The notes beneath the pieces were generated by a model. That model searched no databases and was not told the origin of the DNA. It saw nothing but the letters and a program-made list of their open reading frames with translations. 64,000 bases of DNA, from sequence record OR621298; one strand, written 5' to 3'. The stretch comes from Escherichia phage vB_EcoD-Elw. A program made the translations under genes and the position numbers. Shown piece after piece: positions 7,484-27,467 of this stretch. Numbering within the stretch: the stretch's first letter is position 1; every line of letters starts with the position of its first letter.

Positions 7484-8431
7484 TTACTTATTACGCATAT
7501 CCATAATCATTTGGCCATCATAGCCAGTGCCAACCACAGTCTGCGGTACACCACCTTGGTATTTCTGAGCACGAATCATTTCAACTTCCAGTTGCTTCCA
7601 GCGAATCATCTCAGGAGTAATGGTACGTTGCAACGCGGCGTTAGCTTCAGCTTCTTTCTTAGCTGCGTACAGTTTGGCATCTGCGTCACGCTCATTGGCA
7701 ATAGCTTGGTTATTACGAGCTTCGCGATCTGCTTCTGCTTGTTTAACCTTCTGCTGTGCTTCTTGTTCAACACGAGCCAGTTCAGCTTTCGCAGCATTAA
7801 CTTGCTCTTCACGAACTTTGGTATTCTGTACCTGTTCCATGATTACCGGTGGCAAAGTAATATCCTGAAGGAATACCTGCTTAACTGTATAACCATATGG
7901 GCGTGCATACTCTTCAACTTCCTGTTGAATTGCAGTTTGCAATTGAGCCTGAATTTTAGCATCAAACAAATCTTGTGCTTTAGGTACAGACTTACCAAAC
8001 TCACGAATAGTAGACAGTAATTTTTCAGTTACATATTTGTCTAGCGCTTGATCCTGAGTACCTGCGTTAATACGGTTAATCGGTGCCTTAGAACCATCAA
8101 ACTGCAACATAACAGTCAGGTCAACAGTGGATTTAAACTTATCCTGACTAGGAACCTGAAGTTTATCTAATTTTAGAGCAATATCTTTAGTACTAAAAGT
8201 ATCGAAAGAAGCAAAAGGATTTACAATATGAAAGCCGGGTAGTACTGGGCTAGGGTCAACTTTACCCAGGAAAGTCTGGGTTTTAACAGTACCGTCTTGA
8301 ACAACGGTATAAGAGTTAAAGGCTAGAATCAAGCCTGCTAAACCAACTATAGCACCAATACCCCAACGTTTAATAGTACGAATTACTTTCTGCTCAGAAG
8401 TCAGTTCTTTCATATTTTTAGTATTAAACAT
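7484..8431 (-). CDS. SPFH/band-7 (stomatin/prohibitin/HflC-like) membrane protein
   Basis: 315 aa; N-terminal hydrophobic helix (WGIGAIVGLAGLILAF), central SPFH-like region, C-terminal Ala/Glu/Lys/Gln coiled coil; ATG 8431 with AAGGAAA RBS. Confidence 0.8.
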   Translation of the reverse strand: MFNTKNMKELTSEQKVIRTIKRWGIGAIVGLAGLILAFNSYTVVQDGTVKTQTFLGKVDPSPVLPGFHIVNPFASFDTFSTKDIALKLDKLQVPSQDKFKSTVDLTVMLQFDGSKAPINRINAGTQDQALDKYVTEKLLSTIREFGKSVPKAQDLFDAKIQAQLQTAIQQEVEEYARPYGYTVKQVFLQDITLPPVIMEQVQNTKVREEQVNAAKAELARVEQEAQQKVKQAEADREARNNQAIANERDADAKLYAAKKEAEANAALQRTITPEMIRWKQLEVEMIRAQKYQGGVPQTVVGTGYDGQMIMDMRNK

Positions 8432-12207: not shown

Positions 12208-12909
12208 TCAAATTTTCATTTTTTCGATCATAGCTGCAACACAATAGCTCTCAACTAAGGCATCAAATGCTGGGTCGTGCTTAACCGGATAGATCCCATA
12301 ACGAATGGTGTCCATCTTCTCCATTTTAGCTTTTGCCCAGCTAATACCTTCAGCTTCTAGATCTTTGTAACTATAACCAGCTTGCATCCAGAGATTACGA
12401 AGAGATCGAACATTGCCCAAATTCCAGAATTTCCACGGAACTACCTCTTCATTGGTTCCAGCATGGAACGTGTTTGCCGAGTAGATAGTCATATCAAACT
12501 CTGGGCCATTGCCGTAATACAAAGCATTTTCGCCTAGAGCCAACTCCATAATATTTTGAGCCATAGAGAAGGCAGCATAGTTAGAGCCAAGTTTATTAGT
12601 GCAATGATGTTTACCATTTTGGAAGGCAATCAGCTTTGGATTACGCCCGTTCATAGCTTCCATAATGTGGATAGCAGACGGGCTATTTTTAGCTTGATCC
12701 ATCCAGAATGCTAGAGTAGATGCTGTAACTTTGGCACCAGAATTAAGTTGATCTTGTACATCCAAAGTAACAAATACTAGATCAGGGTCTTTATCAATTC
12801 CATGCATAGCCACAAAAGCGAATGAAGGCATCGCGATATGAGTAGTACCACAATCTCCTGGAGTTCCTAGAGATTCAATATCTAGCATACCAAATGGTTT
12901 TACTTTCAT
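12208..12909 (-). CDS. DEDD-family 3'-5' exonuclease (DnaQ/DexA-like)
   Basis: 233 aa; FGMLDIESLGT (Exo I D-x-E) and HDPAFDAL (Exo III H-x4-D) motifs. Confidence 0.7.
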   Translation of the reverse strand: MKVKPFGMLDIESLGTPGDCGTTHIAMPSFAFVAMHGIDKDPDLVFVTLDVQDQLNSGAKVTASTLAFWMDQAKNSPSAIHIMEAMNGRNPKLIAFQNGKHHCTNKLGSNYAAFSMAQNIMELALGENALYYGNGPEFDMTIYSANTFHAGTNEEVVPWKFWNLGNVRSLRNLWMQAGYSYKDLEAEGISWAKAKMEKMDTIRYGIYPVKHDPAFDALVESYCVAAMIEKMKI

Positions 12910-14049: not shown

Positions 14050-14078
14050 ATTATACGGTAATTTGAAGCGTTTAGCAA
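14050..14078 (-). promoter_or_regulatory. sigma70-type early promoter (TTGCTA-17-TATAAT)
   Basis: Minus-strand consensus motif. Confidence 0.6.
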
Positions 14079-14086
14079 ATGAATTT

Positions 14087-14536
14087 TTAATTTATTAACT
14101 GTAAGCTTCTTTTAATTTCAGACCTTACCTGCATCAAAAGAACTCCTAAAGTATTGTCCCCGATGCCTCGGCAAACACCCCAATATGTATCTCCCCAGGT
14201 ATTTCCTTCGATCAAAGTTGCATTTTTTGTTGCTAACAGTTTGTCTCTCAAATCAGGGATTGCAAACTTTAACCGTAAAAGCTCTAGCATTACATCATCT
14301 TTTACCTTATCCCAGTCAGAGCGTAGAGTTAATTTACGTCCTCTACGTTTGGCAACTCCTGCATTTAGGGAGCGCAGTACATGAGCTACATCATCTTTTT
14401 GGTCAGATTTCATAGCCTGAAAAGCATGTTCTACAGTATCAGCATGCCATATTTCATTTAGATATTCGAAAGTAATTGGTGATAAATAAAAGTTAGATAA
14501 GAAACTATAAGTACCTTTAAATTCAGTAATCTTCAT
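14087..14536 (-). CDS. NADAR (YbiA-like) domain protein
   Basis: 149 aa; N-terminal GTYSFLSNFY and later WGD/YWG motifs typical of the NADAR family; start overlaps the upstream stop (ATGA). Confidence 0.7.
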   Translation of the reverse strand: MKITEFKGTYSFLSNFYLSPITFEYLNEIWHADTVEHAFQAMKSDQKDDVAHVLRSLNAGVAKRRGRKLTLRSDWDKVKDDVMLELLRLKFAIPDLRDKLLATKNATLIEGNTWGDTYWGVCRGIGDNTLGVLLMQVRSEIKRSLQLIN

Positions 14537-14817
14537 TTTTTACGCCCCGCATCTTTAGCCTCCTCGGCTGTATAGATATACTGATAAGCCCCTTTGGAGT
14601 AGGCTGGAGCAGTACACATTTTCTTACGCTCAATCTCTTCTTGAGCTTTTCTTTCGCGTTCAGCTAATTCTTCGTCCAGATAAACTAAACGTTGTTCTGG
14701 AGGAGGTGGAAGACGTGTTTCTGGCTCACCAATATTAGCCTTTCTTATTTGACGAGGTGATTGTGCACGTTTTCTCAATGGTTTAAATCCTAGTGAATTT
14801 GAGTTATAAATCCGCAT
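14533..14817 (-). CDS. hypothetical basic protein (94 aa)
   Basis: ATG at 14817 with GAGGAGG RBS. Confidence 0.55.
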   Translation of the reverse strand: MRIYNSNSLGFKPLRKRAQSPRQIRKANIGEPETRLPPPPEQRLVYLDEELAERERKAQEEIERKKMCTAPAYSKGAYQYIYTAEEAKDAGRKK

Positions 14818-14844: not shown

Positions 14845-14873
14845 ATTATACTAAATTAGAGAGCTTTAAGCAA
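14845..14873 (-). promoter_or_regulatory. sigma70-type early promoter (TTGCTT-17-TATAAT)
   Basis: Minus-strand consensus motif. Confidence 0.6.
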
Positions 14874-24961: not shown

Positions 24962-25151
24962 GGGTTTAAACTCCGCTTTGGAAAACGCATTAATGCAGCA
25001 CTGGGAAACTGGCTATAAGGATGGTGTTGAATCCTGCGCTACTATGCTAGAAGTTATTGCTAATACCTTAATGGAGAAAGGCAATAAAGAATTAGCTGAG
25101 CTATTAGACAGTATTGGGCAAAACTTCAGAGAACAGGTGAAAAATGCGTAG
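24930..25151 (+). CDS. hypothetical protein (73 aa)
   Basis: ATG 24930 with GAGGAGAAA RBS. Confidence 0.5.
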   Translation: MAFSKPMLPDKGLNSALENALMQHWETGYKDGVESCATMLEVIANTLMEKGNKELAELLDSIGQNFREQVKNA

Positions 25152-25968
25152 ATTAATTATTATTAGCGGTGCAGGTTTGAGTGTTGAAAGTGGTGTACGA
25201 GCTTTTCGTACTGATACTGCTAGTGGTAAAGCACTGTGGGATGATTATGATCTAGAAGAAGTATGTAATATTCATGCCTTTCGTGGTAATTTTTATCATA
25301 AAACCCATATGTTTTACAACAAGCGTCGTGAAGAGCTAAAAACTGTTGAACCTAACCTTGCGCATCTTCGTATTGGTGAGTGGTATAAACAATACCCAGG
25401 TCAAGTAGTAAACTTGACTACCAATGTTGATGACCTTATTGAACGTGCTGGCGTTCCACATAGTGACATTCTGCACATTCACGGATATTTAAAAGAGGTT
25501 GTTGTAGCTGACAGCTACAATAGTAGTAATAAACGAATTATTGATGTTGGGTATAACTCTATTGACCCAGATGATTATAAATGGGTTAAACCTAATGTAA
25601 TCTTCTTTGGTGAGCATGCTCCAGCATATACAGAAATGTACAATGTTTTTGATGGTATTACCAGTCAAGATATGATCATTGTGGTTGGTTGCTCTAACCA
25701 AGTAATTAACTTCTACTGGGAATTATTTCCTGTTCTTAATTTGACTGCTGCCAAATTAATGGTAGTTAACTACTATGATAGTGCCCTAGCGACAGAGCCG
25801 GGCTACCAAGGTATGACTCGTAGTGAGATGTACCAGCTGGAAGAACGCGGTATCCCTTACTGGAGTAAAGGGGCTGTAGATGCCTTCAGTGACCCTGATT
25901 TTATTGCTCGTGTAGAAGCTCATCTAGAGGGTAGACCTTATATGCCGGGGAAACAAATATGTCCATAA
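25144..25968 (+). CDS. Sir2-family (sirtuin-like) NAD-dependent protein without the Zn-ribbon
   Basis: 274 aa; GAGLSVESGVRAFR, TTNVDDLIERAG, IHGYL and PNVIFFGE match sirtuin Rossmann motifs; no CxxC...CxxC zinc module. Confidence 0.7.
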   Translation: MRRLIIISGAGLSVESGVRAFRTDTASGKALWDDYDLEEVCNIHAFRGNFYHKTHMFYNKRREELKTVEPNLAHLRIGEWYKQYPGQVVNLTTNVDDLIERAGVPHSDILHIHGYLKEVVVADSYNSSNKRIIDVGYNSIDPDDYKWVKPNVIFFGEHAPAYTEMYNVFDGITSQDMIIVVGCSNQVINFYWELFPVLNLTAAKLMVVNYYDSALATEPGYQGMTRSEMYQLEERGIPYWSKGAVDAFSDPDFIARVEAHLEGRPYMPGKQICP

Positions 25969-26141
25969 TTAAATCTGTGTATACACACCCTGATGATATA
26001 TTTGTATGGGCGGACGGTAGTTGGTGTTATCGCTGTGAGTTGTGGGAAATGGACTATAAATCCGATGACTATGGTGTTATATATGTGGATACGGTTGAGT
26101 ATGATACGTTCTTAGAAAGGAACAAAAATGGAAATAAGTAA
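25959..26141 (+). CDS. hypothetical protein (60 aa)
   Basis: ORF overlapping neighbours by a few codons; weak RBS. Confidence 0.4.
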   Translation: MSIIKSVYTHPDDIFVWADGSWCYRCELWEMDYKSDDYGVIYVDTVEYDTFLERNKNGNK

Positions 26142-26634
26142 TACTCCAATTATTTTTCTAGACATTGATGGGGTGCTCAATTCGAGCATCTCCCACCATC
26201 ATGCACCTGATGATGAAAAGATTTTCTTTGGAAGTGACTGGGTTTTCAAACCACTTCTCAAGGCTTTTCAGGACTTTATTCGTCCTTCTCCGATAATGAT
26301 TGTTGGAGTATCCTCATGGTTCTCTGTCAGGAATGAGATGGAGAACGTTCAGATTATGACCGGATTAGGTCTTATCGATCGTTTTCTTGGTACAACGGAT
26401 TTTACCGGGGGTGGATTATCTAGGGGTAATTCTGTTCTTCGCTTCGTTGAAAAGCATAAGCTCAAACATTGGTGTGTGCTGGATGATGCCGGTGCTATGA
26501 TGTATCAGTATCCAACGGTTATAGTCAATGGTAGAACAGGAATAAATCTTCAGGATTTAAAAGCTGTTAGCTATATGCTAGAATTTAGCCCAGATCTTGA
26601 AATGTGTAAATCCTTACAACAATTTAAGGTGTAA
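26128..26634 (+). CDS. HAD-superfamily phosphatase-like protein
   Basis: 168 aa; N-terminal motif I IIFLDIDGVLN (DxDGV); GAAAGGAAC RBS. Confidence 0.6.
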   Translation: MEISNTPIIFLDIDGVLNSSISHHHAPDDEKIFFGSDWVFKPLLKAFQDFIRPSPIMIVGVSSWFSVRNEMENVQIMTGLGLIDRFLGTTDFTGGGLSRGNSVLRFVEKHKLKHWCVLDDAGAMMYQYPTVIVNGRTGINLQDLKAVSYMLEFSPDLEMCKSLQQFKV

Positions 26635-26636
26635 AT

Positions 26637-27065
26637 ATGTTCAATAATGTATTCTCTAAAGAAGCTAACCCAATTTTGGTTAACTTTTGGCGTACTCTCC
26701 CGGCTAGCCTGTATAATGAGGCTATTAACTCCTTGAAAATATGGTGTGAGAATAACGAAATCTCCTTTGCTTTTAAAGATGATATTGATGAGGCCCCCTG
26801 TATTGGTCTAGTTGTGCAGGTAGAGGAGGGTCTTGAAGAGATTGTGGGCTGGAAAGAGTTAGACGAAATGGGCTTAGTTTTTGCGTTAAATTATAAGCTG
26901 TTTATGCCTGCTAAGCATCGCCTAGTTGTTAACTATAAAACTAGTGAATCTCCTGGTTTTCAGGTTAATGAACGTTATGGTTGGTCTTACTCACCGGAAG
27001 AAGTAAATGATGGTATCCAAAAACTTCGTCGTTTTGGTTATCAAATTCCGGGTTTAACCGCCTAA
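26637..27065 (+). CDS. hypothetical protein, paralogue A of a tandem pair
   Basis: Shares blocks with the next gene (EAPCIGLVVQ vs DDPCIGVFLS; MGLVFALNYKLF vs MGLIVALNFSIF; YQIPGL vs YVPGL). Confidence 0.6.
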   Translation: MFNNVFSKEANPILVNFWRTLPASLYNEAINSLKIWCENNEISFAFKDDIDEAPCIGLVVQVEEGLEEIVGWKELDEMGLVFALNYKLFMPAKHRLVVNYKTSESPGFQVNERYGWSYSPEEVNDGIQKLRRFGYQIPGLTA

Positions 27066-27074
27066 GGGGGCATA

Positions 27075-27467
27075 ATGGAACAAGTATATTGGCGTCAGAT
27101 TGATCCTAGTTTGGTGAAGCGTGCGGAGAAGCTGCTACAACGTTGGTTGGTGGTAAGACAAGTCTCCTTCACTTTTCCGGAGCAGCAAACGGATGATCCA
27201 TGCATTGGCGTTTTCCTGTCTGGATATGCCGGGGAATGGGAATTGGATTGGAATGAATTGTCTGCTATGGGCTTGATTGTTGCCCTAAACTTCTCTATAT
27301 TCCATCCACGTGGTTTGGCCATATGTCGTGTGCCTGATGACGGTTGTTCGCCCCATCTTTTACAGGTGGAAGATGATATTTGGGAGTACACTCCAGATAT
27401 TCTCGCAGAAGCTAAAGAACAATTAAATCGTGTTGGGATTTATGTTCCGGGCTTAAATGATGGATGA
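27075..27467 (+). CDS. hypothetical protein, paralogue B of a tandem pair
   Basis: Paralogue of 26637-27065; AAGGGGG RBS. Confidence 0.6.
   Translation: MEQVYWRQIDPSLVKRAEKLLQRWLVVRQVSFTFPEQQTDDPCIGVFLSGYAGEWELDWNELSAMGLIVALNFSIFHPRGLAICRVPDDGCSPHLLQVEDDIWEYTPDILAEAKEQLNRVGIYVPGLNDG

Follow-up and report, generated by a model that had tools for sequence, protein, structure and literature searches.

The 149-aa NADAR-family protein encoded by adfN in the window (i.e., the whole stretch of 64,000 nucleotides of phage DNA that we analyzed) is AdfN(Bas32), an already characterized NADAR that acts against the DarT1 toxin; the finding is thus not a new one. Across all 149 residues (149/149, 100%) the protein is identical to bas33_0070 (QXV80081.1) of the BASEL phage Bas33 (HildyBeyeler), and it shares 147 of the 149 residues (99%) with bas32_0066 (QXV80247.1) of the BASEL phage Bas32 (IrisVonRoten), the two differences being T9A and K104E. 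The locus is common to the window, Bas32, and Bas33, with the NADAR gene lying between a homolog of T5.090 and a gene for a DUF7022 protein. A six-frame scan of the complete Bas32 genome with the NADAR HMM returned bas32_0066 as the single match (E = 1.5e-66), the next best hit having E = 1.2. Given this near-identity at a shared locus and the presence of a single NADAR gene in Bas32, the window gene can be equated with the protein that was studied experimentally.

Johannesman et al. (Nat Commun 2025, PMC11825919) describe NADAR proteins in Bas32 and Bas33, which they call 'Markadamsvirinae closely related to T5', and introduce the name AdfN(Bas32). According to the same paper, AdfN(Bas32) neutralizes the toxicity of DarT1 when ectopically expressed in E. 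coli without any phage, and on DarTG1 hosts it restores the plaquing of T5, RB69, and Bas25 to full titer, with no effect on DarTG2 hosts (PMC11825919). The initial annotation had proposed this gene as a candidate for counter-defense against DarT-type ADP-ribosylation of guanine, and that proposal is supported by the neutralization of DarT1 by the same protein, as reported in that paper. As a point of record, PMC11825919 calls the Bas32 and Bas33 NADARs identical, whereas their GenBank records differ at two residues (A9/T9, E104/K104).

The window gene and the adfN genes of Bas32 and Bas33 accordingly specify the same protein, at the same position and in the same phage genus, with nucleotide differences at 8-10 mostly synonymous sites; the backbone of the window phage is that of another T5-like isolate, whose nearest relative over the 3-kb neighborhood is HdH2. 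From the Bas33 allele the window gene differs at 10 nucleotides, 10/10 of which are synonymous, a pattern consistent with purifying selection.

Family membership, active site, and fold

The adfN ORF runs from an ATG to a TAA stop codon (Table 1), and the NADAR hallmarks that the initial annotation had claimed for its product are borne out, both motifs being present (residues 7-17, KGTYSFLSNFY; residues 112-121, NTWGDTYWGV) alongside a match to the Pfam NADAR domain PF08719 (DUF1768). The latter spans nearly the whole domain, with residues 9-142 of the protein aligned to positions 9-163 of the 163-position profile, and its score of 79 bits (E = 6.3e-22), set against a gathering cutoff of 35.1 bits, places it far beyond chance. 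PHROGs assigns the protein to phrog_1017, a family of unknown function. The ORF is a real NADAR-family gene, and it is the only NADAR gene that a six-frame HMM scan finds in the 64-kb window.

Table 1. Coordinates of the adfN locus and of other window features discussed in the text
Feature	Position	Strand	Description
adfN	14087..14536	-	NADAR-family ADP-ribosylglycohydrolase, ortholog of AdfN(Bas32); ORF, Pfam, identity, profile alignment, AF2, Foldseek
94-aa gene	14533..14817	-	T5.090 homolog, phrog_4593, function unknown; first cistron of the two-gene unit; last ~60 nt vary with NADAR
Divergent end of 94-aa gene	14540-14603	-	Last ~20 codons differ between NADAR-plus and NADAR-minus phages
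Accessory cassette, ~0.5 kb	14087..14603		3' end of 94-aa gene plus NADAR; from alignment with SIA3lw and Bas32
Upstream promoter	14845..14873	-	T5-type sigma-70, TTGCTT-N17-TATAAT, preceded by an A/T-rich stretch; 5' of 94-aa gene
Downstream promoter	14050..14078	-	TTGCTA-N17-TATAAT, right after the NADAR stop; drives DUF7022 gene; scan 10/12
Exonuclease gene	12208-12909	-	233-aa protein, Rv2179c-like 3'-5' exoribonuclease domain, phrog_255 exonuclease
SPFH/Band 7 gene	7484-8431	-	315-aa SPFH/Band 7 family protein near the tRNA region
Sir2-family gene	25144-25968	+	Sir2-family NAD-dependent protein, Pfam SIR2 E = 6.9e-25
HAD_SAK_2 gene	26128-26634		HAD_SAK_2 protein, downstream of the Sir2-family gene
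Two DUF7415 genes	26637-27467		DUF7415 proteins, following the HAD_SAK_2 gene

The active site was mapped by aligning AdfN to solved NADAR structures through a profile built from 32 homologs (48-60% identity), which was used in place of a single-sequence phmmer alignment to 8BAU that left the E/K motif three residues off register. This profile matches E. coli YbiA (PDB 2B3W, E = 3.2e-36) and the ADP-ribose-bound NADAR of Phytophthora nicotianae (PnNADAR, 8BAU, E = 5.8e-19), the deposited chain numbering of the latter being that of its paper plus 2. The contacts of PnNADAR with ADP-ribose and the activity-abolishing mutations in the E. coli C7 NADAR are both available for comparison (Schuller 2023), and the residue roles in the family motif S/T-x-E-H/Q-x-x-Q-x-x-K, viz., a catalytic Glu and a phosphate-binding Lys, are those given in the same work; the pair corresponds to E43/K50 in PnNADAR, E88/K95 in E. 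coli C7, and E36/K43 in T4. Every listed ADP-ribose contact of PnNADAR has a counterpart in AdfN in the profile alignment: E43 corresponds to E36, K50 to K43, K75 to K63, R79 to R67, W89 to W75, R93 to K79 (an Arg to Lys replacement), E125 to E110, D130 to D116, and W133 to W119. Five of these positions (E36, K43, E110, D116, and W119) are invariant across the clade of 32 homologs. Alignment to characterized NADARs had been named in the initial annotation as the check on the catalytic residues, and in it E36 and K43 fall opposite E43 and K50 of 8BAU. The roles of the individual AdfN residues are predicted by homology to PnNADAR and the E. coli C7 NADAR.

An AlphaFold2 model of AdfN (pLDDT 97.6, pTM 0.91) leads to the same family. 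Foldseek aligns it to 2B3W with a TM-score of 0.82 at 37% identity and to 8BAU with a TM-score of 0.77 at 28% identity, and beyond these YbiA and PnNADAR structures the search of the model returned no PDB fold below E = 1. The modeled protein adopts the NADAR (YbiA-like) fold.

Genomic context and the accessory cassette

The window phage is T5-like (Tequintavirus): the 3-kb neighborhood of adfN matches 445 phage records, all of them T5-like, with Tequintavirus HdH2 as the best (96.5%). On the minus strand the gene order reads ribonucleotide reductase beta, DHFR, thymidylate synthase, two small ORFs, RNase H, the 94-aa ORF, NADAR, the DUF7022 protein (the T5.089 homolog), small ORFs, and the Rv2179c-like exonuclease. 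The NADAR start codon and the stop codon of the 94-aa gene upstream of it overlap (ATGA), and on this layout adfN is the second cistron of a two-gene unit embedded in a nucleotide-metabolism and replication region. The promoter upstream of the 94-aa gene likely drives this unit. It was missed by the consensus promoter scan, its -35 hexamer matching at 3/6 positions, and was read from the sequence; the T5 record has an annotated promoter at the corresponding point, flanked by T5.090 and rnh. The downstream promoter is the equivalent of the T5 'promoter P-H 207' (P-H207), which is annotated between T5.089 and T5.090.

The initial annotation placed the gene in an early operon, a description that is reasonable in view of the ATGA overlap, the RNase H, thymidylate synthase, DHFR, and ribonucleotide reductase neighbors, and the flanking T5-type promoters, and adfN would be expressed early. 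It further stated that no DarT partner is encoded nearby, and this holds at every scale that was covered: no transferase domain is found in the genes neighboring NADAR, a PADLOC scan of the 59 proteins across the 64-kb window gave no match to DarT or DarG, and the annotation of the relative HdH2 lists no ADP-ribosyltransferase. adfN is an orphan antitoxin-like gene.

A few other genes in the window deserve mention in their own right. Relatives of the 233-aa exonuclease are labeled 'metallopeptidase' in many phage records, which looks like a propagated misannotation, T5.087 itself being labeled an exonuclease. An SPFH/Band 7 family gene lies near the tRNA region, and the Sir2-family gene, which is also annotated in HdH2 and Bas32, is followed by the genes for a HAD_SAK_2 protein and then two DUF7415 proteins (Table 1).

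The NADAR gene is absent from T5, in which the order is T5.089, P-H207, T5.090, promoter, and rnh, and likewise from the Salmonella phage SIA3lw, which keeps the downstream promoter. Alignment across carriers and non-carriers delimits an accessory cassette made up of the NADAR gene and the final ~60 nt of the 94-aa gene, which have diverged, with homology to the NADAR-less genomes resuming at the NADAR stop. The left recombination boundary thus falls within a coding sequence, at the divergent last ~20 codons of the 94-aa gene, and the downstream promoter marks the right-hand edge of the cassette. In composition the cassette is not distinctive as foreign (GC 36.2% against 39.2% for the window). 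The gene is carried by 95 of the 445 records that share the neighborhood, at 95-99% nucleotide identity. Among the 60 carrier records listed out of these 95, almost all label the product 'hypothetical protein', 'swarming motility protein (YbiA)', 'GTP cyclohydrolase II', or 'DUF1768', and the label 'antitoxin-like enzyme' occurs within the same 60 only in the Salmonella phage WP85. Two short records (2-3.5 kb), OR848833.1 and OR847649.1, named 'Listeria phage LM 4-14-1' and 'LM 4-11-1', also carry the T5-like NADAR at 98% nucleotide identity, and are probably mislabeled or contaminant contigs and not Listeria phages.

Once the 95 near-identical copies are set aside, the phage protein most similar to AdfN is that of the Salmonella phage vB_SenS_UTK0009 (Epseptimavirus, OQ359889.1), at 59.7% amino acid identity, an allele confined to this one phage in the collection searched. 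Its gene order is RNase H, NADAR, promoter, and T5.090 homolog, which puts it one gene away from the insertion site in the window, where NADAR follows the T5.090 homolog. This implies two independent acquisitions of NADAR genes at adjacent sites within an RNase H-T5.090-T5.089 hotspot of Markadamsvirinae. The metagenomic relatives nearest in sequence (about 55-61% identity) lie as orphan genes on phage-like contigs, and none has a transferase next to it. The nearest non-T5 relative among them (61% identity; a 57.8-kb phage-like contig from Logan SRR12876859) overlaps a gene for a YAcAr (SLOG-type) domain and lies downstream of 7-deazaguanine synthesis genes (QueC, PTPS, GTP cyclohydrolase I, and radical SAM).

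Proposed action against DarTG1 and other readings

We consider it very probable that the orphan NADAR AdfN counters DarTG1 by removing ADP-ribose from guanine. In a host with the DarTG1 toxin-antitoxin defense, infection would release DarT1, which would place ADP-ribose on the N2 of guanine in the phage DNA and thereby block replication. AdfN, transcribed with the T5.090-like gene from the sigma-70 promoter, would then bind the ADP-ribose, with K43, K63, and R67 contacting the phosphates, E36 and E110 the distal ribose, and W75, K79, D116, and W119 the ligand more generally, and would hydrolyze the ribose-guanine bond to restore unmodified DNA on which replication can proceed. Acting on the modification and not on the toxin, it would need no other phage factor, and the ADP-ribosylation of thymidine by DarT2 would not be reversed. 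By this account adfN would be expected to make this particular phage resistant to DarTG1. Johannesman et al. report that T5 is strongly restricted by DarTG1 (PMC11825919), and we count this restriction, together with the absence of the gene from T5, in favor of the AdfN explanation. The published support for AdfN function, which includes specificity for guanine over thymine, comes from ectopic expression in the same paper (PMC11825919). In the literature text available, neither the deletion of adfN from Bas32, Bas33, or another T5-like phage nor a statement that Bas32 and Bas33 are DarTG1-resistant was found; a search for subsequent studies of AdfN in T5-like phages returned only a T4-focused HIDEN-SEQ preprint.

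A wider reading extends this explanation rather than excluding it. AdfN might be a broad-spectrum nucleic-acid de-ADP-ribosylase that also, or mainly, counters other ADP-ribosylating defenses or toxins, for instance those producing cytidine-ADPr or RNA guanosine-ADPr, a possibility that we regard as tentative and on balance unlikely. Wider targets were raised by Johannesman et al. (PMC11825919), and orphan relatives occur widely among phages that infect many hosts. The residue at the subfamily-defining position, E110, is a Glu as in YbiA and the generic NADARs, and not the Asp of the DarG1 type or the His of the T4 type. Removal of cytidine-ADPr and activity on RNA are properties of YbiA-type and generic NADARs that DarG1 and the T4 NADAR lack, although what E110 offers here is an argument by analogy only. 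We know of no defense system of E. coli or Salmonella that makes C-ADPr, which counts against such a spectrum. The more specific proposition that an orphan NADAR with Glu110 would be a generalist on cytidine- and RNA-ADP-ribose, disarming defenses beyond DarTG1, strikes us as distinctly doubtful. The two NADAR alleles at adjacent sites of the hotspot suggest recurrent selection for such generalist activity.

Two other readings were considered. That AdfN is a YbiA-like housekeeping N-glycosidase acting on reactive intermediates of the riboflavin pathway is very improbable, even though YbiA is its closest solved relative in both structure and sequence (37% identity; profile E = 3.2e-36). A weak match to the NCBIfam model TIGR02464 (riboflavin biosynthesis intermediates N-glycosidase) exists, and this reading underlies the 'GTP cyclohydrolase II' and 'ribA/ribD-fused' annotations; yet the score of 66.8 bits is below the equivalog cutoff of 73.7, no riboflavin genes occur among the window proteins scanned or in the HdH2 annotation, and the patchy presence of the gene in T5-like phages is more what one would expect of an arms-race gene than of a metabolic gene. 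The same protein neutralizes DarT1 in vivo (PMC11825919), and this published rescue largely refutes the riboflavin role. The phage's own Sir2-family protein was also considered as a partner, with AdfN reversing ADP-ribosylation by it as an internal regulator. Both genes lie in one genome, about 11 kb apart, and Bas32 too has both; but they are adjacent in none of the window, HdH2, and Bas32, and gain or loss of the NADAR cassette involves only about 0.5 kb of sequence, so that nothing links the two. We are aware of no transferase activity for the window Sir2-family protein, a further point against the pairing, which we judge extremely improbable and reject.

The annotation is settled by this identification for a gene to which most of the carrier records listed (of 95) give the label 'swarming motility protein', 'GTP cyclohydrolase II', or 'hypothetical': it encodes the experimentally characterized anti-DarTG1 factor AdfN(Bas32). 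For phage therapy and host-range prediction, the presence or absence of adfN would predict the growth of T5-like phages on E. coli or Salmonella carrying DarTG1. The new biology is limited to small details beyond the published work, viz., the structure and boundaries of the cassette, the second, divergent allele at an adjacent site, the YbiA-class active-site Glu, and the mislabeled records.

Relationship to known NADAR systems

Among phage NADARs the obvious counterpart is AdfN(T4) (T4 gp30.3), likewise an orphan, which takes ADP-ribose off guanine and works against DarTG1. Both proteins retain the catalytic Glu and Lys, which by coincidence carry the same numbers, E36/K43. The two nevertheless belong to different clades: BLAST and PSI-BLAST searches from AdfN(T4) miss the Bas32 protein, as stated in PMC11825919, and T4-type NADARs have, according to the literature, a His in place of the conserved Glu at the E125-equivalent position, at which the profile alignment places Glu110 in AdfN. 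They also differ in their requirements, in that full activity of AdfN(T4) is confined to T-even infections and AdfN(T4) cannot neutralize DarT1 in uninfected cells, whereas AdfN(Bas32) does so there, again according to the same paper (PMC11825919).

DarG1 (E. coli C7 and G. lovleyi, 8BAT) belongs to the same superfamily and shares the chemistry and the physiological substrate, the guanine-N2-ADP-ribose made by DarT1. It is a protein of about 230 aa whose fold is extended at the N-terminus, its second acidic position is occupied by Asp (D171), and its gene adjoins that of DarT1, whereas AdfN is a 149-aa core domain with Glu110, has no adjacent toxin, and is encoded in a window with no DarT among its 59 proteins; it thus falls outside the DarG1 type. 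The DarG1-type structure 8BAT was not recovered by sequence or Foldseek searches with AdfN, as would fit the missing N-terminal extension in the latter.

The closest solved structure is instead that of E. coli YbiA, which has the same compact core fold and a Glu at the subfamily-defining position. A Glu at the equivalent of PnNADAR E125 defines the YbiA subfamily (Schuller 2023), and AdfN has E110 there, invariant in its clade; in the published tree of PMC11825919, AdfN(Bas32) falls outside the YbiA group and near archaeal NADARs. YbiA is encoded on the chromosome, in an operon under LexA control, and a metabolic role has been reported for it, whereas AdfN is phage-borne. YbiA hydrolyzes G-ADPr in vitro, yet E. 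coli YbiA fails to protect cells against DarT1. With a nearest solved relative that is the housekeeping-type YbiA and not DarG1, and with YbiA failing in this rescue, the activity of AdfN against DarT1 would not have been predicted from its sequence alone.
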